From: a virus | Taxonomy: Duplodnaviria > Caudoviricetes | Length of the DNA stretch: 58,687 nucleotides | Virus record (IMG/VR): IMGVR_UViG_3300021957_000041 | Coordinates: 1 to 58,687 of that record | Reading direction: 5' to 3' (one strand) | Shown here: one piece after another, positions 3,288-16,500 of the stretch | Position numbering within the stretch: the stretch's first letter is position 1 | Layout: every line of letters starts with the position of its first letter | Notes under the pieces: model-generated | Told to the model about the DNA's origin: nothing | Databases searched by the model: none | The model's input: only the letters and a program-made list of their open reading frames with translations | Program-made: the position numbers and the translations under genes

Positions 3288-4440
3288 TTGAAACCGATGC
3301 CAGTTCTGCATCTTCTATTTCAGCATTATCTGTAAACTCAACGTCTTCATCTATAACACTATTTGCTGATTGATATTCCATGATTAGATTATCACATATA
3401 TGTGTGTATAGTTCAGTTCTTAAATCTTCATCTTTCAGCATTTCAGGAAATTCTTTTGCCATAAACTTATAGTCTTTTCCCTTAGAGTCTGTAAATGAAT
3501 AATAAGCACCACCTTGTTTTAAGATTTTGTGAGTTTTTAAAGTTGTTATCCAACTTCCGATGTCATCAATGCCACGATTAAAATAAATTTCAAATGATGC
3601 TTTTCTTTGAGGAGGTCCCATTCTGTTTTTTACAATAGTTGCTTCGCATTTGCCACCGATAACTTCTGTTGTTGCACCTTTTTTAATTTGACCCATGCTT
3701 TTGAGACGAATGCGAACACTTGCGTGAAACGCAATTGCTTTTCCACCACTCGTTGTCCACGGATCACCAAACATAACTCCCATCTTTTGTCGGAGTTGAT
3801 TAGTAAATACCAATGCAATTTTTTGTCTTCCGATTGTTGAAGTTAACTTACGCATTGCTTTACTAATTAAAATTGCTTTGGTGGTTGCGTAACCATCCTT
3901 TGCATAATCTGCCGCCATTTCAATTTTAGTTGATGCAGCTGATACACTATCTGTTACAATAGTTACAAGTTTATCTTTGTTGCTTTTACGTACAGTTGCA
4001 ATGATGTTGTCAATCGTTGCAAAAATATCTTCAACCGTGTCAACATGAACATACAATAACTTTTCAGTATCAACACCAATTGCTTTTAGATACTCAATGG
4101 ATACACTGGTCTCGGTATCAATTAATACCGCAACACCCCCTTTCTTTTGAGTTTCCGCAAGAATATGACCTGATACTAAACTTTTTCCACTTTGTTCAAG
4201 TCCAGTTAGTTCTGTGATTCGTCCTGTTGGAATTCCACCATTAGGACGATTTGAAATAGCAAGATCAAGAAGACTACTACCAGTTGAAATCCAATCAGAT
4301 ATAAGTGACGGATCATCACCTTCACTTAAAAAGAAGGCAACTTTACCTTCGTCTTTATATGCAGTATTTAAACTATCTGCAAGTACACTTGCTAAATCAT
4401 CAGATTTGCTTGCTGTTTTTACTTCTTTTTTCTTTGCCAT
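3277..4440 (-). CDS. uvsX: RecA/UvsX recombinase
   Basis: ISTGSSLLDLAI, GRITELTGLEQSGKS, VFTNQLRQK, TTSGGKAIAFHASVRIRL and VKNRMGPP motifs. Confidence 0.95.
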   Translation of the reverse strand: MAKKKEVKTASKSDDLASVLADSLNTAYKDEGKVAFFLSEGDDPSLISDWISTGSSLLDLAISNRPNGGIPTGRITELTGLEQSGKSLVSGHILAETQKKGGVAVLIDTETSVSIEYLKAIGVDTEKLLYVHVDTVEDIFATIDNIIATVRKSNKDKLVTIVTDSVSAASTKIEMAADYAKDGYATTKAILISKAMRKLTSTIGRQKIALVFTNQLRQKMGVMFGDPWTTSGGKAIAFHASVRIRLKSMGQIKKGATTEVIGGKCEATIVKNRMGPPQRKASFEIYFNRGIDDIGSWITTLKTHKILKQGGAYYSFTDSKGKDYKFMAKEFPEMLKDEDLRTELYTHICDNLIMEYQSANSVIDEDVEFTDNAEIEDAELASVSNEQ

Positions 4441-4467
4441 ATTTAATAATTTTTAGTTTGTGAACTT

Positions 4468-4495
4468 GTGTGGTGAGGGAACACCCCCACCACAC
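4468..4495 (-). other. GC-rich stem-loop between ssb and uvsX, lacking a U-tract
   Basis: mRNA GUGUGGUGGGGG-UGUU-CCCUCACCACAC forms a 12-bp stem including one G-U pair and is followed by AAGUUCAC. Confidence 0.6.
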
Positions 4496-4515
4496 TTATA
4501 GTTCTTTTTACTTCT

Positions 4516-5346
4516 TTAAGACTTAAACAACTCTTCAAAAGCAGCCTCTACATCTTCCGTGGAAGTTGCGTTTGGTTTGCTTTGGTCTGTAGTTGCACTA
4601 GCAACGGTTGGTTGCTTTACTTCACTTTCGGTTTTTTCAACCTTGACAGTTTCGGAATCAACCGATTCTGCCGGTGGTGCATCTTCTTCAGACTCACCAC
4701 TTACCCACTTTTCAAGAGCATCCTTCAATTCATCATAACCAAGTTCTTGATAAATCTCTGTGATTTCTGCTTGATTGTTGGCAACACCATCAACGATATT
4801 CTTATTTTCGGATATAGGTGATGTGTTTGGTTTAACACGAATGTTAGTTTTTGGAAATGATCTTCCTGCTTCTTCTGCGGAAAGAAACTCAATGGTGATG
4901 TCTCTTCCTTGTGTAGAATCAGTAATATCTCCATAATCGGGATCAGCAATAACACTCAATAGTTCTTGGTAAACTTCTTTACCGAAACCCCAAAACCTAA
5001 CTCCTTCTGCTTCTTCTCCACGAACAAGAACAGGTACAAATGTACGCATCTTTGGCATTAACGAACGACCCATGCGGTAATCATCTTTGTCACCACTACG
5101 AGTTAACTTTTCAGCAAACTCAACGATTGGGTCAGGACGACCAAACGACTTTGGTGATAAGTATGTTCTATTATTGATTCCATAATGAAAATACAACTCA
5201 ATAAATGGATTATCGGGTTGATGCTTGTATGGTACAATACGAACTTGTTGCTTACCAGGTTGAGGTTTCCATTGATAGTTTTTGCGATTATTTGTCTGAG
5301 ACAAATTATTCAACTTTGCTTTTATTTTATTTAGGTCAATAGCCAT
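4516..5346 (-). CDS. Single-stranded DNA-binding protein (gp32-like)
   Basis: WKPQPGKQQVRIVP, PFIELYFHY, GVRFWGFGKEVYQEL, DITDSTQGRDI, and acidic C-tail EDVEAAFEELF. Adjacent to uvsX. Confidence 0.88.
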   Translation of the reverse strand: MAIDLNKIKAKLNNLSQTNNRKNYQWKPQPGKQQVRIVPYKHQPDNPFIELYFHYGINNRTYLSPKSFGRPDPIVEFAEKLTRSGDKDDYRMGRSLMPKMRTFVPVLVRGEEAEGVRFWGFGKEVYQELLSVIADPDYGDITDSTQGRDITIEFLSAEEAGRSFPKTNIRVKPNTSPISENKNIVDGVANNQAEITEIYQELGYDELKDALEKWVSGESEEDAPPAESVDSETVKVEKTESEVKQPTVASATTDQSKPNATSTEDVEAAFEELFKS

Positions 5347-5389
5347 TTTTTATTCCTTAATTTTTGTATGTTTTATTATTATTCTTAAT

Positions 5390-5418
5390 ATAATACTATT
5401 CGTTTTGATATTCGTCAA
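5390..5418 (-). promoter_or_regulatory. sigma70-like promoter upstream of ssb (TTGACG-17-TATTAT)
   Basis: Near-consensus hexamers at 17-nt spacing, read directly. Confidence 0.65.
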
Positions 5419-5433
5419 TCAGAATTATATTAA

Positions 5434-5664
5434 TCAAGAAGATTTTCCGTCATTTTCAACGAAATTGTAAAAAATCGAAGCAACTTCTAATACTTCGTGT
5501 GTAGTTGGAAGTGGAGGTATTTCGGGAGCAGAATTATCGTATTTAGCACGTTCTTGGAGTTCTTCTTTTTCCATGTGCCATGCTTCCCATACCATCTCTT
5601 TTGCGTTTTTTAACACGTCTAATCGAATGCCGTAGGCATCTAAATTCTTTGATTCATTTGTCAT
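5434..5664 (-). CDS. Small hypothetical protein (76 aa)
   Basis: Clean ORF with its own promoter. Pattern IRLDVLKNAKEM...PPLPTTHEVLEVASIFYNFV resembles small proteins recalled from T4-like phages. Confidence 0.7.
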   Translation of the reverse strand: MTNESKNLDAYGIRLDVLKNAKEMVWEAWHMEKEELQERAKYDNSAPEIPPLPTTHEVLEVASIFYNFVENDGKSS

Positions 5665-5710
5665 TTTTCAATTGTTATTTATTAATTACATTAACGAATT
5701 AATGTGTGTA

Positions 5711-5743
5711 TATAAATATATCTCAGAACTCGTTTTGTGTCAA
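5711..5743 (-). promoter_or_regulatory. sigma70-like promoter (TTGACA-17-TATATT) overlapping a TATTTATA motif
   Basis: TTGACA at 5743-5738, TATATT at 5720-5715, TATTTATA at 5718-5711. Confidence 0.6.
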
Positions 5744-5746
5744 TTT

Positions 5747-6514
5747 TTAAGTAGATTTTTGAAGATTTTTTTCAATTCTTTTGCGTGAAACTTCGACTGC
5801 TTTTTTGTTGATGTCACATCCTAAATAATTACGATTTAAAGACTTAGCAACATCGAGTGTCGTTCCACTTCCACAATAAAAATCTGCAACTAAATCTCCC
5901 TCGTTACTACTTGCTTTAATGATGCGTTCAAGTATCTTTGGGTGTTTTTCTGAATAATAATCAGTTTGTTTTTTAACTTTTAAACCCGATGGGATGTCAT
6001 CCCAAATATTTGTAGGTATCGTTCCAACTTTTAATTTTTCTTCGGTAATATTAGGACGATCTTGTTTTTTACTGATTACAGATTTATATGGAACCCGAAT
6101 ATCTAAATCATTGAAAACAAAATCATTCGATTTTGTATACACAATTATGTAATCATGTTTTTTTGCGAACTCTTTTTTTCCACGACCACCTATATTAAAT
6201 TTTACTACAATTTGGTTTCTGAAGTTTTCATATCCAAATATATTATCCATCAAAATTCGTATCCAATGAACAATACGCAAGTCCATTTGAAGATATATGG
6301 TTCCTGTTTCTTTTAACACACGATTCATTTCGTGTAAACGAGGAATATAATGATCATCTATATCTTTTTTATTGTTTGGTAAATCTGTATAATCTTTGAA
6401 CTTTTTACCAGTTCCATAAAGAATATCACAATAAACTAAATCTACACTATTTGTATCTAGTAGATTAAGAAGTTTTAAATTATCAAAATGGTAAACTTGG
6501 TTTATGGGTTTCAC
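5747..6514 (-). CDS. DNA N4-C/N6-A methyltransferase, beta-class, with atypical DILY catalytic motif
   Basis: SVDLVYCDILYG at the motif IV position, RVLKETGTIY, KHPKILERII, and ADFYCGSGTT (motif I, SAM binding). GTG start. Confidence 0.85.
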   Translation of the reverse strand: MKPINQVYHFDNLKLLNLLDTNSVDLVYCDILYGTGKKFKDYTDLPNNKKDIDDHYIPRLHEMNRVLKETGTIYLQMDLRIVHWIRILMDNIFGYENFRNQIVVKFNIGGRGKKEFAKKHDYIIVYTKSNDFVFNDLDIRVPYKSVISKKQDRPNITEEKLKVGTIPTNIWDDIPSGLKVKKQTDYYSEKHPKILERIIKASSNEGDLVADFYCGSGTTLDVAKSLNRNYLGCDINKKAVEVSRKRIEKNLQKST

Positions 6515-6517
6515 GCA

Positions 6518-8083
6518 TTACAACTTCCCACCTTCAAATCTTTTCATTTCTCCGTTGTTGTAACGATAACGAACTTCAACTTCAACAGTTTCTTTGTTTT
6601 CTCCGTAACCTTCTGTTTCTACATCGTATGTAAGAATGTTGATTGGTTTCTTCATTATTTCATGTAAATATGCCATAGTTCCCGTTGCATATTTGATATC
6701 AAGTGGTCTTCCATCAAAGTCGTGTCTAAGTAAAATCTCAGTATTTTTGTATTTCATGTTCTCCATGTAAATCACAGGACGACCCATATTAACGTGGCGT
6801 TCAACTAACTTTTCTTTTATCTTTTTGTGATCTTTACTAACAACGACATATTTGTTTGTTGATTTATCTAAAGCATATTCAAAATACTCATACTTCTCAC
6901 AAAAATCTCTTGTAAAAAATTCATTTAAAAATGTAACATCATTATAGTTCTCACGAACTTCATATAGTTTTTCACGACCTAGATTTAAGTTTTTATTCCA
7001 ATATCTTTTTTCATCACCATTGTCGCAATTTTCGTATTCTTTACCAAACTTACCTTTATTCCATCGGTCTTCAATATCACGCAACAAAGTATTTCCAAGT
7101 TTGTATGGATTGTTCATGTTATATTTACCACCCAAAACTCCTGCATGGTGTTTTGCATAATCAAAAATACCATCGTCTCCTGCAAAATTACAAGTTGCCA
7201 TAATATATGAATCCCAATAACTTGCCCAACCTTCATTAAGAACTTTTGTCATTCCTTGTGGACGATAATAAATAGATTCATCACGAATCATACTAAGAAT
7301 ATTTTGTTGCCAAGGTTCTAAACGACAATGATTGATAATCATCAACATAATATCTCGTTCAGGTTTCAATGGAAACTTATTTTCTGCTAATTTTTGTCGT
7401 TCTTCACGTTCACGTCTTTGCTTTTCAATATAATGTGCAGGATTAACATACTTCTGCATATACTCTTTAGTGTCTAAACGAGAAACGTGCTCACGGGGTT
7501 GACGATCTTCAAAGTTAAACTTTGTTGCTTTCTTTAAACTACTTTCACGATAACATAATGATGGATCAATTAAATCATCAATAGCAAGAGCTGCATTTAA
7601 AAAGTCTTTTACTTTCTTTCTACCAAATCTATCCATGTACATACGAATTTTATCACTATGATTTGCCATAACATTCATCATGTTACGATTCGTATGCTTG
7701 AACATAATATTGTTTTTAAAAAAATCACTATGTGCAGTTGCGTGTGCAACAACAGTTAAATTATCAACAATAGGATTGTTACGTTGCAGATACATATAAG
7801 TCGGATCAGTATTTACAACCATTTCATAAATCTTACCCATACCTGAATGATACTGATGATGTAACTGCTCAAATTGTTGTCCAAAATTAAAATGAGGATA
7901 ACGAACAGGAAAACCACCATAAGCGGCAATCTCAACTATTTCGTCCGCATCAAATTCTTCAATAACCAACGGATATGGATCAAGTCCATTATCATAACAC
8001 GCCTTTAAACACTCAGGTATAAGAGCAGCCAACTCTGGACATACTCCTTCGTTTAAACTATCTACTTCCCATGCAATTCCCAT
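6518..8083 (-). CDS. spoVR: SpoVR/YcgB family protein
   Basis: GFPVRYPHF, KIYEMVVN, AHATAHSDFFKNN, TKVLNEGWASYW, NPYKLG and YNDVTFLNEF signatures. Confidence 0.93.
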   Translation of the reverse strand: MGIAWEVDSLNEGVCPELAALIPECLKACYDNGLDPYPLVIEEFDADEIVEIAAYGGFPVRYPHFNFGQQFEQLHHQYHSGMGKIYEMVVNTDPTYMYLQRNNPIVDNLTVVAHATAHSDFFKNNIMFKHTNRNMMNVMANHSDKIRMYMDRFGRKKVKDFLNAALAIDDLIDPSLCYRESSLKKATKFNFEDRQPREHVSRLDTKEYMQKYVNPAHYIEKQRREREERQKLAENKFPLKPERDIMLMIINHCRLEPWQQNILSMIRDESIYYRPQGMTKVLNEGWASYWDSYIMATCNFAGDDGIFDYAKHHAGVLGGKYNMNNPYKLGNTLLRDIEDRWNKGKFGKEYENCDNGDEKRYWNKNLNLGREKLYEVRENYNDVTFLNEFFTRDFCEKYEYFEYALDKSTNKYVVVSKDHKKIKEKLVERHVNMGRPVIYMENMKYKNTEILLRHDFDGRPLDIKYATGTMAYLHEIMKKPINILTYDVETEGYGENKETVEVEVRYRYNNGEMKRFEGGKL

Positions 8084-8086
8084 AAC

Positions 8087-9241
8087 TTAAAAAGGTACTT
8101 CTTCATCGGCAGGTGTTAATAATTTTTGAAGAGTTTTGAACACATCAGATGGAGAATCCATAGATGCAGTTACAATTGTCTTCGGATCAAGTTCTCCACT
8201 TGATAACTTAGTTTGTATGTGAGGTAAAAACGTTGCCCAACTTCTTACTGCCTTGACTTCAGTTATACCAATTAAATTTGCATACTTTTGCATTGTTTTT
8301 AAATAATCTACACACAAATCATTATCAGAACCAAAATTCTCTCCGTCACTTAAATAGAACACATAAATGTTCCATTCATTTAAAGGAAATGCTTTTTCAA
8401 CAATGTCATTTACCAAATGAAAAGCACTACTAATTTGTGTTCCACCACCACTTTTATATTTGTAGAACTTTTCTTGATCTACTTCTTGTGCATGATGATC
8501 GTGAACAATATACTTTACTTGTGTTTCTTGATAAAATCTTTGTACCCAATTATCAAGATACCAACACAACTCACGAATTAATGCTCGTTTTTCTTCGTCC
8601 ATACTTGCAGAAATATCTGATACAAAGAATATAGCCGCATTTGTATCGGGTACTTCAACTGAACTCCAACTTCTGAATTCTTTATCATCTTTAATTGGAT
8701 AAAAGTTAGATAAATCTTCTGGATTGTAATCTTCTGATGAAATCAATCGTTTGAAAGCATTCTTGAGAGTTTTGCGTTTATGAAGCAAACTATTGTTTCC
8801 TACTTTGGCAATGCGATTCCACTTGATTTTTTCTTTGACCATTTCTCCATTTTCTTTAGGAAGCAAATTTGGCAATTGAAGTTCTTCACCGATCATATCA
8901 AAGTAAGCATCCATGCTAATTCCAACATCAATTTCGTGACCGTCTCCGTCTCCGTCTCCACCATCACCAGGTTGTCCACCTTGACCTTGACCCTGTGGTG
9001 GTCCGTCACCAACTTCATCTCCTACATCTGCTTCTCCGTTGCCGACACCACCTCCATCAGAAGGTTGTCCGTAACGAAAACTCGGAAGTTCTACGTGAGG
9101 AACCCGAACTACTACGAAGTCTTTTCCTCTTCGTGTAACTCGTTGACCACCTTTAATGTGTTTTTTGAGTTTTTCGTCAACATTTCCTTTGACGATATCT
9201 CTGTATTCACCGTGGTCTTCTCGTATTCTACGTGATGGCAT
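8087..9241 (-). CDS. yeaH: YeaH/YhbH (DUF444) vWA-domain protein
   Basis: Gly/Asp-rich linker, ELQLPNL, MIDAS DISASM, SGGGTQISSA and YLSDGEN. Lies between prkA and spoVR. Confidence 0.92.
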   Translation of the reverse strand: MPSRRIREDHGEYRDIVKGNVDEKLKKHIKGGQRVTRRGKDFVVVRVPHVELPSFRYGQPSDGGGVGNGEADVGDEVGDGPPQGQGQGGQPGDGGDGDGDGHEIDVGISMDAYFDMIGEELQLPNLLPKENGEMVKEKIKWNRIAKVGNNSLLHKRKTLKNAFKRLISSEDYNPEDLSNFYPIKDDKEFRSWSSVEVPDTNAAIFFVSDISASMDEEKRALIRELCWYLDNWVQRFYQETQVKYIVHDHHAQEVDQEKFYKYKSGGGTQISSAFHLVNDIVEKAFPLNEWNIYVFYLSDGENFGSDNDLCVDYLKTMQKYANLIGITEVKAVRSWATFLPHIQTKLSSGELDPKTIVTASMDSPSDVFKTLQKLLTPADEEVPF

Positions 9242-9261
9242 AATGATGTATTCGTTGACTA

Positions 9262-11367
9262 TTAATCTTCGTCTTCGTCTGCATCACCTCTTGCAAAAAT
9301 ACTTCCAACATATGTAAGAACATCTGAAGCACTATCTTCATCGTATCCAAATGATGTAATCAATCGTTGCTTCAACGCATCGATCTTTTCAAGAAGTTCT
9401 TTGTCAACTACAGTTGCGGTATCTTGAGCAAGAGCAGATAACTTGATGCTATCCTTGGTATCTTCAAACAACTTCTTTTCAAGTGCTTTGTATAACTGCT
9501 CATTAGAGTCGTATTTGAACTCTTTGCCTTTAGCGGCAAGTCCACCCATGTAATTCATAATTTCTCTACGGAAATCGTCCTTCATGCCATTGGAAATGCC
9601 AATCTTTTCTTCTATACTACGCATAAGTTGTTCATTGGCAACTTCTTCTTTACCGGTAACTTGGTTAGTAACTTTTTCGTCTTGAATATACGCAACGATG
9701 TTATCTATGTAGTTGGTACAAGTTGCTTTTATTGCTTCCTCACTACTACTAAGTGCTTGTTGTACTTCTCGTTTAACAATTCTGTCATATTCTTTTTCAA
9801 CTGCTTCAAGTCGTTCAAACATATTCTTTTTATTATCTTCACTATTAAACCCACTATAACTTTTAAGTCCTTCACGAATTTGTGCAAACAACATGAATGG
9901 ATTTAAACTTTTAGCACCCATTCTTGGATTTACAATTGCATTAGAAAATTGATTCTGAATGAATCGTGCGGATACTCCACCATATAATCCTTCTTTTGGT
10001 GATTCCTCTTGCATTTCTTTTACGTGTTCGTCCGTGAAACCATGTACACTTTGACCATTGTAAAGTTTTGCTTTTTGAATGATACCCATATCTTGCTTGG
10101 AACTTTCTTCCAAACGACTTACAACTGCGAACAACGCAGCCAAATAAGTTGTATGAGGAGCAATGTGCTTATTTACAGTGTTTTTGTTATAGAAGTGATC
10201 ATAAATCTTCTTTTCTTCGTCAATCTTGAGAAGATAAGGAATATCAATTTTAATTGTTCTGTCACGAAGTGCTTCCATGAATTTGTTGTTGGTCAACTTT
10301 TCAAACTCAGCATTATTGGTGTGACCAAGAATAACTTCATCAATAGGTACTTGATTGAAACGACGTGGTTTAACACGATGTTCTTGGGTTGCACCAAGTA
10401 AATCATACAAGAACTCAGTTTGAAGTTTAAGAATTTCTTGAAACTCAATCAAACCACGATTAGATACGAGGAATTCTCCATCAAAATCGAATGCTCGTGG
10501 ATCACTTTCACTTCCGTACTCTGCCAACTTTCGGTAATTAATATCACCTGTAAGTTCAGTTGCATCTTGTGACTTTTCATCTTTTGGTTGGAATGTACCG
10601 ATACCAATACGATTCTTTTCAGAAAGAGTAACACGGCGAATTACGATATGGTCAAGCACCTTACGATAATCACCACCATGCATTTCCATTAATTGATTAT
10701 AGTAAAATTCATTAACAGGATTTAGTGCTCCGTCTAATTTAATTTTGTAATCGTCATCACTTCTTTTTGAATTTAATTTATTGATGATTTCACTACGAAT
10801 ATCATCAGGAAGAAGTTTTAATGGTTCTTCGTTCATTGGACATGGAACTAAAATTTCTTTTCCTGCTTTGTCAGATACTTTCCAACTGAATGAATATAAA
10901 GCACCTTCTTCAGTTTGAGTATAATGTTCTAGTCCTTTTTTAAGAGCAGTAACGATAGTAGACTTACTACTTCCAACGGGACCATGTAAAAGAATAACAC
11001 GACGTTCAGGACCATAGTGACGACTTGCACTTTTAAGAATGTCCATAAATTCCATTAAATTTTCTTCTAAACCATAAATGGAAATATCACCAAGACCTTC
11101 AAAGAACTTGTATTTAACGTGTTGTCGTTTGCAATATGTAAATTCGGATGTTCCGTGAGACATCACCATATCGTAAAGTCTTTGGTAGGAGTTTCTTGCG
11201 ATTTGCGGAGCTTCTTCCAACATCTCAATATAATCCCAAAATGTACCCGTCCAATTTAAAGACTCATAGGTGCTCACCGCATCATCGTTATCGGACCTAA
11301 TCAAGGATTCGAGGGTGCTTGCTCTTTCCTTATTTTCTTTTTGTCGTTTTTTATTTTCCATAACCAT
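9262..11367 (-). CDS. prkA: PrkA/YeaG family AAA+ ATPase / serine protein kinase
   Basis: ARNSYQRLYDM, LLHGPVGSSKST (Walker A), CPMNEEPL, GIGTFQPKDEKSQD, SDPRAF, NRGLIEFQEILK, EALRDR and HIAPHT. Start at 11367 or 11361. Confidence 0.96.
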   Translation of the reverse strand: MVMENKKRQKENKERASTLESLIRSDNDDAVSTYESLNWTGTFWDYIEMLEEAPQIARNSYQRLYDMVMSHGTSEFTYCKRQHVKYKFFEGLGDISIYGLEENLMEFMDILKSASRHYGPERRVILLHGPVGSSKSTIVTALKKGLEHYTQTEEGALYSFSWKVSDKAGKEILVPCPMNEEPLKLLPDDIRSEIINKLNSKRSDDDYKIKLDGALNPVNEFYYNQLMEMHGGDYRKVLDHIVIRRVTLSEKNRIGIGTFQPKDEKSQDATELTGDINYRKLAEYGSESDPRAFDFDGEFLVSNRGLIEFQEILKLQTEFLYDLLGATQEHRVKPRRFNQVPIDEVILGHTNNAEFEKLTNNKFMEALRDRTIKIDIPYLLKIDEEKKIYDHFYNKNTVNKHIAPHTTYLAALFAVVSRLEESSKQDMGIIQKAKLYNGQSVHGFTDEHVKEMQEESPKEGLYGGVSARFIQNQFSNAIVNPRMGAKSLNPFMLFAQIREGLKSYSGFNSEDNKKNMFERLEAVEKEYDRIVKREVQQALSSSEEAIKATCTNYIDNIVAYIQDEKVTNQVTGKEEVANEQLMRSIEEKIGISNGMKDDFRREIMNYMGGLAAKGKEFKYDSNEQLYKALEKKLFEDTKDSIKLSALAQDTATVVDKELLEKIDALKQRLITSFGYDEDSASDVLTYVGSIFARGDADEDED

Positions 11368-11368
11368 T

Positions 11369-11397
11369 ACCTTATTTTATTTTTAATTAGTAGTCAA
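11369..11397 (-). promoter_or_regulatory. Possible sigma70-like promoter for the prkA operon (TTGACT-17-TAAGGT)
   Basis: TTGACT at 11397-11392 and a TAnnnT box 17 nt downstream. The AAGGT could instead be a ribosome-binding site. Confidence 0.45.
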
Positions 11398-11405
11398 CTT
11401 ATTTT

Positions 11406-11801
11406 TTAAACTTTTTTAATATTATACAGACGAGTGCTAACTTCTCTGTAAGAATCTCCGTCAACTAGCAGTATTTTGTTTTTGTATAAGTTCCAGTCAA
11501 TAACAAACTTGTTATCAAGTACACCGTTATTCAATTTTCTTATTAATGCGTTCAATGAGTTAATTGTATATAATGTGTTGGAATCTTTTTTTCTATGTAC
11601 ACTTATTGTATTTTTGTAGAAATTGTTAGAATTTAGAGTATCTTGATTTATGTTGTAAGTCAACATTAAACTATTTAAATCATCTATATCTTGTAAAATA
11701 AAAATTTTATCAAAAACTATATCGTAATACTTTTTTACTGCGTTTAATTCTGCATCATACGATTGCATATCGGTGAATGTACAAAGTAGTTTAGTTCTCA
11801 T
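11406..11801 (-). CDS. Hypothetical protein (131 aa)
   Basis: Clean ORF with AAGGTTAT upstream and a TATTTATA motif at 11827-11820. Contains KLLCTFT and HRKKDSNTLYTINSLN. Confidence 0.8.
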   Translation of the reverse strand: MRTKLLCTFTDMQSYDAELNAVKKYYDIVFDKIFILQDIDDLNSLMLTYNINQDTLNSNNFYKNTISVHRKKDSNTLYTINSLNALIRKLNNGVLDNKFVIDWNLYKNKILLVDGDSYREVSTRLYNIKKV

Positions 11802-11847
11802 AAGATATAACCTTTTGTGTATAAATATCTTATCGTCATTCTAAAAT

Positions 11848-13134
11848 TTAAATTTGCTTCATGTCTCCGTATGTTTTTCCGATATATGTTCTAACAGGAT
11901 ATTCGTTATTTGATGTAATAATTGGTTGTAGTTCTTTAATAATTTCAAATTCACTTTTGTGCATATCAAATAAAAACGCATCGTATGTGTATAATATCAT
12001 GCTCGATTTACGATTTTGCATAAACTTATTTATTTTCAAAATAACTTCGCAATTTTTTTCAGTTTCCGCTGACTGCAATAAATAATTGAATACTTTATAT
12101 GAATTTATTTTATCACCAAAAAACATAGATGCAATTTTTCGTTTATAGTACCATGTTTCAACATATTGATTTTTTTGGTAATAACTCCATACAAAATCTA
12201 CATACTCAGCAATTGCTTTCATAAAAGGAACATTTTGTTTTATATCATCACTTATTCCACCATAAATTAAGTTAAAAGTCACTTTCTTGGAAAACTCATA
12301 TTCTTCTTCGGTTAGTGTATCTTTTCCGTGATAATATTTTCCTAGATATTCATGTAAAGATGTAGAAGGTAAATCATACTTTAAATAATTACCCAATAAA
12401 CGCAGGTGATAACTTTCATAATCTACCATCACCAACAAACCATCTTCTCTGAATCTGCTTGTGAAACAATCACGTTGCCCAGTCTTTTTATTGAGTGCAG
12501 CGAAATTAACATTTCCAAATGCATTACTCGGACGACCTGTCGGAGTCATCATATTATATTGACTATAAACTAAATTATTTTCATCTACTAAATTAGTATC
12601 ACCCAAATTAAAGTTTGAAACAAACAATCCATTTTTTTCTATTCCATGCAATGCCGATGAAAAATCTCGTTCATATTCAAGTAAGTTGGAATCTAATTTT
12701 AAGTTTTCAACAGAACTGCACAATTCTTTGAAATGCTTTAATAATACCATTATAGGAACTGATCTTAAATCTTTCAATCTACTATGATTATATTCGTTGT
12801 TTAATTCAGTTTTATTTGACAGATACGAACACACCAATGCATCGGTTGAATTTTCAAATGTGTTCACATGATATTGAATTTTTTTTCTATCAAATATTAT
12901 TTTATTGCCCAATGTCTTGAATATCATGTTTAAATATTCCGATGGAATGTTCATAGAATCAGGATGATTAAATGAAATTACATAGAATTCCTTTTTAACA
13001 TTAACAAACAACGCAAGTGGTTTATTCTCGTGTGAATGTAAATTCGGATATGTGTAATACAAATTCAAAATACTTGAATTACAATCAAGCAACGAAAGAA
13101 GTTCTTTTGCTTCGTTGGGACTTTCTATAAACAT
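11848..13134 (-). CDS. Compact family-A DNA polymerase-like protein
   Basis: TPTGRPSN, motif A DYESYHLRL, motif B SKKVTFNLIYGG, NYLLQSAE, and motif C YTYDAFLFD. Confidence 0.8.
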   Translation of the reverse strand: MFIESPNEAKELLSLLDCNSSILNLYYTYPNLHSHENKPLALFVNVKKEFYVISFNHPDSMNIPSEYLNMIFKTLGNKIIFDRKKIQYHVNTFENSTDALVCSYLSNKTELNNEYNHSRLKDLRSVPIMVLLKHFKELCSSVENLKLDSNLLEYERDFSSALHGIEKNGLFVSNFNLGDTNLVDENNLVYSQYNMMTPTGRPSNAFGNVNFAALNKKTGQRDCFTSRFREDGLLVMVDYESYHLRLLGNYLKYDLPSTSLHEYLGKYYHGKDTLTEEEYEFSKKVTFNLIYGGISDDIKQNVPFMKAIAEYVDFVWSYYQKNQYVETWYYKRKIASMFFGDKINSYKVFNYLLQSAETEKNCEVILKINKFMQNRKSSMILYTYDAFLFDMHKSEFEIIKELQPIITSNNEYPVRTYIGKTYGDMKQI

Positions 13135-13142
13135 ATAATAAT

Positions 13143-13171
13143 ATTATATTATATATCTTTGTAAAATTCAA
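13143..13171 (-). promoter_or_regulatory. sigma70-like promoter (TTGAAT-17-TATAAT) 8 nt before the polA-like ATG
   Basis: Read directly. No Shine-Dalgarno sequence between the -10 box and ATG. Confidence 0.55.
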
Positions 13172-13574
13172 GTGGATTATTCAAGACCAAGTTTATATTA
13201 TTGATTGTCTTTTTAGCACGTGCGGTTGAATCTTTATTAAAATCACGAACTCCAACTATAGGACCATCGGAACTGTCAGTTGTCTCGGTGTTTCCTTTTA
13301 TTTTCCACAATACTCCGATGCAAGTATAAAAAGGATTTTTTTGCAAAGAGTTAAACTGAACACTATCAACTTCATAAACAGTTGCAGTTGCTGAATTTGA
13401 TTTTTGTGCAAAGTATCTTACCATTACTTCGTTGCTATAATCAATTTCGTCTTCACTTGGTTTTTTATACTTTGGATTTAAAAACATATACCCAGATTCT
13501 CTTTTTCCACGATGTTTTGATAAAACCTTATAGAAATTGTTCATGTATATATTTTCGTGTTCTTCGTATTTCAT
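13149..13574 (-). CDS. Hypothetical protein at the end of the baseplate operon
   Basis: ORF tightly coupled to the upstream gene. Contains VRYFAQK, YEVD, WKIKG and NPLEFYK. Confidence 0.7.
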   Translation of the reverse strand: MKYEEHENIYMNNFYKVLSKHRGKRESGYMFLNPKYKKPSEDEIDYSNEVMVRYFAQKSNSATATVYEVDSVQFNSLQKNPFYTCIGVLWKIKGNTETTDSSDGPIVGVRDFNKDSTARAKKTINNINLVLNNPLEFYKDI

Positions 13575-13576
13575 TT

Positions 13577-16500
13577 TTAATCTGCTCCAGGATAATAATG
13601 AGATTCAATTGTAGTTGACCAATCTCCGTCTCCAATTGAGTGCTTGATTCCAGTTATAGCAAAAATCCCCTTTTCAAAGTATCTTTTTGGAATTCCGGCA
13701 CAATTAAATGTATCGTATAAACGCAAACCTTCAACTCCATCTATTTTCATTGTAAGTTCAACTCCAGGTAAGGGCATATTATTAATAATATTATTTTTTG
13801 GACTTGGATCGAGTTCACAAAAGTCTTTCATTCTATTTCTATCAATATCAACAAGTTCAATGTTTATTTCATAATCATTTTTATCTGTACCATAACCATC
13901 ATCATGTATTTTAACATTTGCTCTGGATACAGACATTTTTTGACTCATATTATTATTTGATTTATATGTTAATATATCTTGTTTATCTAAATACTCTTCA
14001 CTTAAATTATTTTGTTTTATATATTTTGCAATTTTTGGGTCTAAATGCTCAGAGTTTTCCGAATCAAAGTCATCACCATGTTTTTCTTTTGCATTGTGAT
14101 ATGCTTGCAAAGCAGATGGATGTAAAGACGTTTCTTGTCCAGGAAGTTCTTCTAAATGGACTTCATATGGAAAATCCATTTCTTCTTCAATTTCATATCC
14201 GTCTCCAGTCCAATCAGGATCTTTGTATGTAGGATTCCATGTAATTGACACAATCTTATAATTTTTATCATCATCTGGCCAATCTTGTTGGTATGGTTCT
14301 TTCCACACATCATTCAACCCACTCGTATAAGTTCCAAAATGTATTACCTTGCCTACTAAATGTAAAGTTGGTCTTTTTTTCACTCTTTCACGATCCATGT
14401 CGTCATTTACCAGGTCACCACTATGCTTCCAGACCCTATCGTTAGTTGAACCCTCTTTACCTTCACTTTTCGCAACTTTATTTACAAAATCATAATCTGC
14501 TTTAATTTGAAATGTCCGTTTGCGTTTAATATCACCGGGACCAACTGCACTTCCATAACTCTTTTTTTTCTTTTGCTTTTTAGCAGAACCAGTTTTTAAA
14601 CTAGATTCATTTTTATTTTTATCTTTTTTGATATTATCTATATTTTTCTCTCGGTCTGCTTCACTATCTGCTTTTAAAGTTTTTTTCTTTCCATCTTTAT
14701 CTGTGTATGAAATATCCCACTGACCAAGGTCTTCGTCTACTGGATACGAAGGAAACGAAGCAGATGTTGCATCTACTCCGAAAAATTTACTTGAAGCAGT
14801 AACAATATATTTTTCAGGATCTTCTATGTTAGTGGGATGTTTATCAACATCTTTTAAATTTGCCACCGCACCTTCCAATGGATTTTTTGCTCCTTTTAAA
14901 ATTAAGTCATGGTCTTCTTTTGCAAAAAAACCATTCTTTTTATCCAAGTTACCAAATACTATCATAGATGCCATTTCAGATGTTGGTTCTACACTTAAAT
15001 CAAGTTCTCTTACCATACTATCCCCACGGTGAGACGGAAATACCCACGCATCTAATTTTTGTTGACCAACGGTTTCTGATCCAGAGAAATTTTGATCTAC
15101 CAATGCCAATGCAATATTAGATGAAGTATGAATATCTCTTCCAATTATGGCAAATTTCCATATATTACCCGCAGCCGCAGATACCTTTCGCATAATATCA
15201 AGTAATATTGCAGACGCATTTTCACCGTGATTGAATGAGTCCGTGATTACATCCAAATTGACATATAAATCTTCAATCCGTCCTGAGTAACCCATTGTGT
15301 TTCCAGTGATTCCGGGACCCTCTTCTGTATCCGATGCGAAGTCTGGAAAAGGACGAACGCAATCGTTTGCTTCTACCCATGCTTGACTAAGACGATCTAT
15401 TTTTTTCTGCCCATGTGACAATGCAACTGCTTCTTTTAAATTTAGATCAAATTTATTGGAAATCGCAGGATGTTGTAAATTGTATCCCGAAGTTGCTTTT
15501 ACCGAAAGTATTTGGTACAAATCGTCTCTTGGACTCATTTTTAGTGCTTCGTCTACCGTTGCAGGTGGACTTTTTCCGGGATTCATTGCTTTTACAATAT
15601 CTATAAATGCCCGTGAAGTATCTTTATAACATTGCTTTGATCCTCCAGCTTCACCTTTTTTCAAAACAGAATATCCTGATGGTCTTGATGAATGTGCTCC
15701 TGCGGATTTTGTTTTGGCAATGGTTGAACCATTAAATGTTTCGGTATTCCATCTAGGTGCTACTGAATTTGGTATTAATAAAACACTTCCATCCACCGAT
15801 TTTATATTTGGATGAGCAACACATCTGCATCCATAGACCGTGAAGTGTGATATATGTGCATTGGTCTGCTCTGACCTCCTCGCAAAAAACATATTAAATA
15901 TATCAATCAAATATCCAACTGTTATGTAAGTTCCTCCGTTTGCATTTGATTTTCCAGCCATAAAAGGTTTTGAAGAATCATACATATTGAAACTAAAATA
16001 ACGACCTCGTGCAAGTTTATATGCTTCTTCTTCGGCTGCTTTTACAGCTTTATCATCCGCACTACCACGAATCTCCTCTTTTAGTTTTTGATCCGTTGGA
16101 GACAATCCTTCGTTCATGGTTGAACCTATATCATACTTACCCAAAAGTGAACGTCTTAATGTTTTATTAACGAAGGTTTTAATATCAGTAAACTTAGAAT
16201 CTTCTTTTTGTTTATCAACCGCACCCGATGCCATGATTTGCTGGCCAACTTCTGACATACAAGAAATTTGTATAGAGCAATCATAACCACCATCATCTCT
16301 CATACTATAATTAAAGTTTGTAATCAATCCCATCGCAAATCCATAATTACCACACCCTCTACGAATATGTTCAGATGCAGGTGATGGATTTGGAAGTACA
16401 TCATTTTTAAAATTTGATTTTTCATTATTCCACAAACGATGAACTTCCCAATATTCATCGGCACATCTTGTAATAAGAGCATCCCTTGGAAATGTATTCC

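Follow-up and report, generated by a model that had tools for sequence, protein, structure and literature searches.

A PrkA-YeaH-SpoVR gene triad in the replication region of a large marine-type phage: a viral-only clade and a predicted zinc-metallopeptidase-like SpoVR

Introduction

Bacterial genomes encode a module of three proteins, namely a PrkA/YeaG-family AAA+ ATPase, a vWA-domain protein of the DUF444/YeaH/YhbH family and a SpoVR/YcgB-family protein, known as prkA-yhbH-spoVR or, in Escherichia coli, as yeaG-yeaH and ycgB, whose biochemical activity has been unclear for decades. The three genes are reported to be mutually best cofitness partners in six species, and the same report states that "nothing is known" of the biochemistry of SpoVR (bioRxiv 10.1101/072470). 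Work of October 2026 linked YeaG with an autophagy-like program of global protein degradation in starved E. coli: the protein, renamed SpdA, is reported to be needed for the RpoS-dependent and largely non-specific degradation of cytoplasmic proteins during carbon starvation, a process that supplies amino acids and ATP (PMC13684143). Among viruses, spoVR has been reported as the most abundant "sporulation" auxiliary gene in the virome of a marine oxygen-minimum zone, where it was taken as a means of sporulation control (PMC8940887). Here we describe a complete PrkA-YeaH-SpoVR triad on the IMG/VR virus record IMGVR_UViG_3300021957_000041, a linear contig with a CheckV completeness of 29%, which was analyzed over its full 58,687 nucleotides (hereafter the window). 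The window represents part of the genome of a jumbo myovirus of roughly 200 kb; the carrier of the triad is a large marine-type phage.

Results and discussion

The triad as a genuine phage module

Distribution, conserved junctions and selection establish that the triad genuinely belongs to the phage as an auxiliary module, and rule out both an artefact of assembly and a capture of recent date. When IMG/VR was scanned with the PrkA protein, 168 stretches were found to encode a relative, and 80 of these loci were retained for comparison. PrkA, YeaH and SpoVR lie on the same strand and in the same order in 76 of these 80 loci (tblastn), and the remaining four (L007, L015, L040, L041) stop at a contig edge inside or just after PrkA. 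The co-location of the three genes that had attracted attention in the window is thereby found to recur across IMG/VR, as well as in GenBank phages (see below). Further, when loci were anchored on the adjacent gp32-like gene, all 24 close relatives with full upstream sequence (gp32 identity of at least 82%) read hyp131-PrkA-YeaH-SpoVR-methyltransferase-gp32, where hyp131 is a conserved 131-amino-acid (aa) protein; many of these relatives lie on contigs already recovered in the PrkA scan, such that the comparison tests the junctions and is not an independent sample. Seven truncated gp32 loci show the partial pattern expected of them, the remainder being too short to judge. In 12 more distant relatives (gp32 42-64% identical; L205-L212, L215-L218) hyp131 is found 100-1250 nt from gp32, with neither the triad nor the methyltransferase. 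Hence, the triad and the methyltransferase behave as a single block of about 5.6 kb, which occupies a fixed site in some relatives and is missing from it in others; the unrooted data do not give the direction, i.e., gain or loss.

The three genes are inherited as a unit and are under strong purifying selection. Pairwise dN/dS (the ratio of nonsynonymous to synonymous substitution rates, computed by the NG86 method for the window against 15 of about 37 own-clade loci) ranges over 0.036-0.069 for PrkA, 0.037-0.098 for YeaH and 0.031-0.069 for SpoVR. The values for the neighboring genes are 0.029-0.113 (gp32), 0.086-0.185 (methyltransferase) and 0.07-0.43 (PolA-like piece). While dS exceeds 1 in many of these pairs, the least saturated ones (L005 and L006, dS 0.37-0.64) yield a dN/dS of 0.034-0.070.

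IMG/VR contains some false positives, and the window is itself a fragment, both of which would favor regarding the triad as a passenger, i.e., as bacterial DNA binned wrongly as viral, a chimeric assembly or a recently captured segment in decay. We find this explanation hardly credible. The preliminary description of the locus, made from the sequence alone, had named chimerism at the borders, near identity to a bacterial chromosome and relaxed selection as grounds on which the module might be dismissed. All three are excluded by the junctions, which are the same in 24/24 close relatives, by an identity of just 56% for the best match among at least 596 found in species-representative genomes, and by dN/dS values of 0.03-0.10 in a region of uniform composition. 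Moreover, the carriers include a 222-kb record that is 100% complete (L036) and a 572-kb record with terminal repeats (L082), both of which encode a head protein 34-35% identical to that of the window. The carriers of the triad are genuine phages.

Family membership and phylogenetic position

The three proteins match their respective Pfam families well above threshold: PrkA scores 284.2 bits with PF08298 and 233.9 bits with PF06798 (cut-offs 25), YeaH 223.1 bits with PF04285 and SpoVR 357.5 bits with PF04293 (gathering score 27 in both cases). All three fall under the NCBIfam equivalog cut-offs. PrkA reaches 207.6 bits against the cut-off of 576 of NF011999, which places it below the E. coli YeaG equivalog threshold, and YeaH reaches 330.7 against 388 bits with its best model, NF003711. 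Judged by sequence, then, the phage PrkA is a member of the family and not an E. coli-type equivalog. The phage SpoVR likewise does not reach the SpoVR_C model (PF24755; 13 vs 27.6 bits, E 0.11), which is passed by the copy of the Ralstonia jumbo phage RsoM2USA; at E <= 10, Pfam offers beyond the protein's own family just this match and a weak one to CofJ (0.007).

In a database of 5.8 billion proteins, the first 80 PrkA rows are 72-94% identical to the window's protein and lie on contigs of up to 290 kb, after which the identity falls to at most 58%, where named bacteria begin (Kofleriaceae, Planctomycetota, Haliangium ochraceum). At least 596 stretches of species-representative genomes encode a PrkA relative; the best 80 of these are 52-56% identical and belong to Bdellovibrionota, Myxococcota, Planctomycetota, Chloroflexota and others. 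All three genes are held by 54 of these 80 bacterial loci, and in the window's order by 53. At the DNA level, a search of GenBank phages gave a single match of 373 nt at 68%.

A PrkA tree of 87 rows was computed with a quick IQ-TREE run (LG+G4) from the window and 12 own-clade sequences, 28 second-tier IMG/VR sequences, five GenBank phages, 40 bacteria (the odd-numbered of the best 80 loci) and E. coli YeaG as the outgroup. All 13 own-clade sequences fall on one side of a branch with a Shimodaira-Hasegawa-like approximate likelihood ratio test (SH-aLRT) support of 100. Support is likewise 100 for a second viral clade, whose 27 rows include the 595-kb megaphage LR756511, and the 40 bacteria group with two IMG/VR rows at 99; the branching order of these three groups is not resolved. 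The Thermus phages form a separate long branch, and RsoM2USA and the megaphage LR745206 group with the E. coli-type YeaG. Trees of SpoVR and YeaH (41 rows each) recover the same split with SH-aLRT of at least 99, comprising 9/9 own-clade, 19/19 second-clade and 13/13 bacterial sequences. Thus, the phage-specific clade envisaged in the preliminary description stands for all three genes, whereas a donor phylum does not emerge: the trees are unrooted and sample the nearest bacteria, and neither donor nor direction of transfer follows from them. As sampled, the triad of the window lies in a viral-only clade, the closest sampled cellular PrkA relatives being 52-58% identical. In our reading of the overall pattern, the triad is carried by no fewer than four lineages of phages, and its genes move together.

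Predicted fold of SpoVR

We predict that the N-terminal domain of SpoVR is zinc-metallopeptidase-like, an assignment that is new here. The AlphaFold2 model of the phage protein (mean predicted local distance difference test score, pLDDT, 81.4; predicted template modeling score 0.78) is divided into a putative zincin-like N-terminal domain (residues ~1-400) and an alpha/beta C-terminal domain. A structural search with this model against representative chains recovered 20 chains at Z >= 8, the best being 3o0y_A (Z 10.6, root-mean-square deviation, rmsd, 3.9, 183 aligned residues), followed by 4fgm_A (Z 10.0, rmsd 4.3, 204 aligned); thermolysin is found at Z 8.2. Named peptidases occupy 42 of the 50 top rows, with Z from 10.6 to 5.8, and comprise M1 aminopeptidases, LTA4 hydrolase, M32, M3, thermolysin, LasB, collagenases, M61, M30, M36, ACE, ACE2, DPP III and MATCAP, i.e., families that share the zincin fold. 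A second, independent model restricted to residues 1-410 (pLDDT 76.9) likewise places named peptidases in 43 of the 50 top rows.

The pattern of conservation is in keeping with this model. H64, E87, H114, H118, N283-E284-G285 and A287 are invariant in an alignment of 41 sequences, and the two histidines of the H114-A-T-A-H118 stretch are spaced as in the HExxH motif of zincins, with an alanine after the first histidine. In the model, H114 and H118 lie on the helix 105-124, and E284 lies on the helix 280-297, which comes after two β-strands. NEGFA is the motif that supplies the glutamate ligand in M1 peptidases, and the conserved glutamate of the corresponding NEGWA motif (E284), positioned on the later helix, is a predicted candidate for the third metal ligand. 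Among tblastn matches, where misses can be truncated high-scoring segment pairs, HxxxH-DFF is found in 32/33 own-clade, 54/54 bacterial and 32/43 second-clade SpoVR sequences, and NEG[WF]A in 33/33, 54/54 and 33/43, respectively. The case for a zincin-like SpoVR is made because the list of peptidases is uniform and the motif is present. ESM Atlas returned neither a usable match nor a model for SpoVR, and no publication linking SpoVR with a metalloprotease in its title or abstract was found.

Predicted complex of YeaH with SpoVR

Prediction of a YeaH-SpoVR complex, with each protein entered as a 41-row alignment, gave in each of three runs an ipSAE (an interface score derived from predicted aligned errors) of 0.81, as against 0.00 for the best of three controls. 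Among solved complexes, 58 of 80 attain this mark, and among mismatched pairs 2 of 110, counts that hold roughly only, as our own alignments were used. The runs have at least 87% of their contacts in common, and the pLDDT of the partner is at least 78. The predicted interface on YeaH is formed by its N-terminus (residues 1-16, 44-83 and 104-107) and not by the vWA domain, and that on SpoVR by residues 47-76, 163-171, 320-324, 398-417 and 434-472. The part of YeaH concerned includes a conserved PSFRYG stretch (P53-G58). The segment 47-76 of SpoVR, which contains the invariant H64 and G68, is disordered in the monomer model. The high score does not stem from a complex already present in the PDB, because no sequence relative of either YeaH or SpoVR was found there. 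These results support a model, new here, in which the N-terminus of YeaH would clamp onto SpoVR.

The ATPase and vWA components and a proposed signaling role

A PDB chain deposited as "Serine protein kinase" (9xip_A) matches residues 31-693 of the phage PrkA (E 1e-210), and PrkA structures are available as 9xip, 9xiq and 9xir. The Walker A motif GPVGSSKST occupies residues 129-137, in which G129, P130, V131, G132, K135 and S136 are invariant in an alignment of 13 sequences that includes very distant members; the P-loop GPxGxxKS is intact in 37/37 own-clade, 43/43 second-clade and 80/80 bacterial matches. The metal ion-dependent adhesion site (MIDAS) of the YeaH vWA domain takes the form DISAS...GGGT...SDGEN, with D209, S211, T268 and D299 invariant and S213 near-invariant in 41 sequences, and DISASM is found in 30 of 34 own-clade matches; the N-terminal linker of the protein is rich in glycine and aspartate. 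These 13- and 41-sequence alignments agree with the initial account of intact Walker A and MIDAS motifs.

A signaling role, with PrkA as a Ser/Thr kinase that, with YeaH and SpoVR as partners, drives the cell into or out of a starvation or dormancy program, draws on the annotation of the family as serine protein kinases, on the description of E. coli YeaG as a kinase for adaptation to nitrogen starvation (PMC4664914) and on the reported interpretation of the three genes as one signaling pathway by Price et al. (bioRxiv 10.1101/072470). However, Bacillus subtilis PrkA is reported to lack kinase and autophosphorylation activity and to be instead a slow, ATP-dependent casein protease sensitive to phenylmethylsulfonyl fluoride (PMC9512850), and Bacillus anthracis PrkA is likewise reported to be without kinase activity, its kinase-like domain being described as lacking a P-loop (PMC13001217). 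In the phage protein, residues 430-701 contain no invariant Asp, Asn or His in the 13-sequence alignment, D636 and D663 being near-invariant. Additionally, a kinase model leaves a zincin-like, YeaH-bound SpoVR without a role. We consider signaling unlikely as the function of the phage triad.

A possible role in protein turnover

Of the options that the preliminary description had offered for the triad, namely dormancy control, protein degradation and a chaperone role, protein degradation gains most, because of the work on E. coli YeaG (PMC13684143) and the SpoVR fold predicted here. Our preferred reading, tentatively held and possible rather than probable, is that the triad is an ATP-driven protein-turnover machine that recycles the host proteome during infection. 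PrkA would serve as the AAA+ motor, YeaH as a vWA/MIDAS adaptor and SpoVR as a hydrolytic or substrate-handling subunit. If expressed alongside the early/middle replication genes of the phage, the triad could activate, independently of signals from the host, the bulk cytoplasmic degradation of the starvation type that requires YeaG in E. coli, and the freed amino acids and energy might then feed virion synthesis in nutrient-poor hosts.

Several considerations weigh against a turnover machine of this kind. The canonical HExxH with its catalytic glutamate is seen in 0/135 SpoVR matches, because of which SpoVR is not filed as a zincin peptidase. The Z values of the SpoVR model are middling given that the protein is helical; Foldseek with the model against the PDB returned nothing at E <= 0.001, its top rows being unrelated and of high rmsd, and a SpoVR profile found 0 matches among PDB sequences at E <= 10. 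A search of proteins of 673-2000 aa recovered no YeaH fused to SpoVR or PrkA at E <= 1e-10, which is weak evidence. In bacteria, mutant phenotypes are reported to differ across species (bioRxiv 10.1101/072470). The E. coli proteolysis study covered yeaG only, its main text being without YeaH or YcgB (PMC13684143). Purified B. anthracis PrkA is reported to have negligible protease as well as kinase activity, and its authors suggest that a contaminant may explain the protease result obtained with the B. subtilis protein (PMC13001217). The argument from nutrient-poor hosts, finally, is a conjecture.

A more specific form of the turnover reading, which we regard as doubtful, would have the triad as a split ATP-dependent metallohydrolase: the N-terminus of YeaH would dock the zincin-like SpoVR with its atypical HxxxH/NEGWA site, the vWA/MIDAS domain would couple the pair to a PrkA AAA+ ring, and no fewer than four phage lineages would have taken the whole independently and would use it to drive the proteome of the host into a liquidation of the starvation type. 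Were this true, the missing protease behind the YeaG-dependent bulk proteolysis of bacteria would be named, and the phage triad would constitute a protein counterpart of the phage nucleases that recycle host DNA.

AAA+/vWA pairs usually have defined clients, and the triad lies among replication genes of the early/middle type. Both points would fit a targeted form of remodeling, in which a few specific host proteins, such as defense proteins, sigma factors or hibernation factors, are removed or unfolded in place of bulk turnover. The specific phenotype reported for B. subtilis, which concerns sporulation and sigma-K (PMC9512850), would fit it as well. Nevertheless, PADLOC models give 0 matches for PrkA, YeaH and SpoVR, the sequence names no client, and the YeaG-dependent loss of protein in E. 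coli is reported to be widespread and largely non-specific (PMC13684143). In our assessment, targeted remodeling is rather improbable.

Returning to bulk protein turnover, the retention of the triad under strong selection in a large viral-only clade, together with its occurrence in at least three further phage lineages, indicates that it works outside its native regulation and benefits the virus, and the phage version offers itself as a compact, self-contained one to reconstitute. The value of the locus lies in how large and coherent the viral clade is, in its timing with the 2026 YeaG result and in two testable structural predictions or leads, namely the zincin-like SpoVR and the YeaH-SpoVR interface. 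As for the "sporulation" auxiliary metabolic genes of marine viromes, the hosts need not sporulate, and protein turnover is the more likely concern of these genes.

Genomic context of the triad

Every plausible gene of the window (open reading frames, ORFs, of at least 60 aa over positions 1-58687) lies on the minus strand, and the GC skew is negative in all 1-kb bins of the same range. The features around the triad are collected in Table 1. The genes are co-directional in the order PrkA-YeaH-SpoVR, with 20 nt between PrkA and YeaH and 3 nt between YeaH and SpoVR. On one flank the triad is followed by the methyltransferase, a gp32-like single-strand DNA-binding protein, UvsX/RecA, a 5'-3' exonuclease and a DnaB-like helicase; on the other lie the 131-aa ORF and the PolA-like piece and, beyond these, genes for the baseplate, tail sheath, major head protein, portal and large terminase. 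The GC content is even over 6-12 kb (0.295-0.378) and inside the usual range of the window. Most of what the preliminary description had recorded of the locus is thereby upheld: ORF coordinates and Pfam matches agree with three full-length genes separated by 20- and 3-nt gaps in the canonical bacterial order, Pfam and PHROG matches place phage genes of a replication/recombination block on both sides, and the triad is AT-rich like its neighbors. No tRNA genes, looked for as a clue to the host, were found in the window.

Table 1. Features of the window in the vicinity of the triad and at its far end
Feature	Position	Strand	Matches and remarks
gp32-like single-strand DNA-binding protein	4516..5346	-	PF08804 2.9e-12; phrog_1192; downstream block border
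N6/N4 DNA methyltransferase	5747..6514	-	PF01555 2.2e-43; PADLOC type II methyltransferase models
SpoVR/YcgB-family protein, 521 aa	6518..8083	-	PF04293 1e-106; phrog_35217
DUF444/YeaH/YhbH-family vWA protein, 384 aa	8087..9241	-	PF04285 8.9e-66; phrog_19072
PrkA/YeaG-family AAA+ ATPase with PrkA C-terminal domain, 701 aa	9262..11367	-	PF08298 1.9e-84; PF06798 3.2e-69; phrog_22605 2.9e-106
Conserved protein, 131 aa (hyp131)	11406..11801	-	Without Pfam or PHROG match; upstream block border
PolA-like piece, 428 aa	11848-13134	-	DNA_pol_A 31 bits, under cut-off 34.3; profile positions 103-352
Giant ORF, 1217 aa	13577-17230	-	First of three consecutive giant ORFs that separate the replication block from the baseplate/tail genes
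Giant ORF, 1796 aa	17535-22925	-	Second of the three
Giant ORF, 2381 aa	22931-30076	-	Third of the three
ORF with Zeta_toxin/AAA_33 kinase-like domains, 347 aa	57385-58428		PF06414 1.7e-11

The candidate sigma-70 promoter that had been proposed at 11368-11397 is not supported. By eye, the stretch reads TTGACT-17 nt-TAAGGT, with the second hexamer overlapping the ribosome-binding site; the stretch is absent from the sites listed by a consensus scan, and over 4000-14000 promoter-like sites show no enrichment (38 vs 46.1 +/- 6.7 in shuffles). Terminators number 5 against 3.9 expected, and the sole one within the triad (7927-7913) is weak and lies inside the SpoVR coding sequence. The triad is more likely part of a long minus-strand transcription unit.

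Just upstream of PrkA, the divergence among relatives differs from that of the triad. In many of the relatives among L008-L039, the PolA-like piece is 42-73% and the 131-aa ORF 52-57% identical, as against 85-98% for the triad, gp32 and UvsX, with dS being higher too. This divergence over 11406-13134 suggests a recombination boundary or several allelic types. Given its weak DNA_pol_A match, the ORF at 11848-13134 may be a split or very divergent polymerase.

The presence of three ORFs of 1217-2381 aa at 2-19 kb from the triad, without any Pfam match and, for the 1217-aa ORF, also without a PHROG match, raises the alternative of a phage-directed chaperone, i.e., a MoxR-like AAA+/vWA system that matures or metallates large assemblies of the phage, such as the products of these adjacent ORFs. 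The AAA+ plus vWA/MIDAS architecture would fit such a role, as would the fact that the carriers are mostly very large phages, with contigs of up to 572 kb. However, Thermus phages of 69-77 kb carry the triad too, the same operon is widespread in bacteria that have no phage structures, and the triad is absent at the site in twelve related phages. A dedicated chaperone is thus very unlikely in our view.

Elsewhere, the triad has QueF- and NeuB-like genes or an HldE-like sugar kinase/cytidylyltransferase for neighbors (L036 4666-5580 and 12732-13580; L057 4110-5432); as these are host-like, the triad sits there among other host-like auxiliary genes. Separately, the head-protein homolog of the 262-kb L057 record (G003:C1:26757-28217) contains one in-frame TAG, which may indicate stop-codon recoding.

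Comparison with known systems

The triad had initially been put forward as a candidate for an undescribed system. This does not hold as such: phiYS40, MN1, RsoM2USA, LR756511 and LR745206 carry it, and PHROG families exist for each protein (22605, 19072 and 35217). No publication that considers the three genes jointly in phages was found, in a search that left most subscription journals outside.

The bacterial prkA-yhbH-spoVR or yeaG-yeaH plus ycgB module consists of the same three Pfam families in the same order and on the same strand. In the versions with a long-form PrkA, from Myxococcota, Bdellovibrionota, Planctomycetota and Chloroflexota, the Walker A, MIDAS, HxxxH and NEGWA motifs are common with the phage copy, to which PrkA is 52-56%, YeaH 30-43% and SpoVR 37-45% identical among the best 80 of at least 596 matches. 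Unlike the bacterial module, the phage copy is encoded among phage replication genes and forms a separate clade with full support.

The Thermus phages phiYS40, TMA, MN1, Lalka and phiLo also hold DUF444, SpoVR and PrkA together, the latter two annotated as "SpoVR" and "serine kinase". They differ from the window in their order (DUF444-SpoVR-PrkA), in a PrkA that is 29-33% identical to that of the window and in their thermophilic hosts. In the GenBank annotation of phiYS40, DUF444 is gene 056, SpoVR 057, an ORF of unknown function 058 and the "serine kinase" 059, and MN1 shows the same gene order minus the extra ORF. The product of phiYS40 gene 058 (L001 4052-5902), which lies between SpoVR and PrkA, has 616 aa and no Pfam match, and could be a lineage-specific fourth component.

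RsoM2USA and the megaphage LR745206 display the PrkA-DUF444-SpoVR order of the window, with a PrkA of the E. coli YeaG type that is 26-27% identical to the window's. In RsoM2USA, the three proteins (PrkA 30, DUF444 29 and SpoVR 28) are all deposited as hypothetical, and in the accessible text of the paper on this phage SpoVR is listed under replication and PrkA under signal transduction, the two being unlinked (PMC8504454). The second viral clade, represented by IMG/VR contigs of up to 572 kb and by LR756511, has the same triad in the same order and is viral-only. It is set apart by a PrkA that is 47-50% identical, by extra genes that often stand between the three and by HldE-like kinase and PolIII alpha neighbors.

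In functional terms, the closest parallel is offered by AAA+ proteases of the FtsH/Lon type, in which a AAA+ motor feeds a hydrolase, as proposed for the triad, and the phenotype of YeaG-dependent proteolysis fits this parallel. In contrast to FtsH and Lon, the motor and the putative peptidase of the triad are separate polypeptides, which would be bridged by the vWA protein, and SpoVR has HAxxH in place of HExxH.

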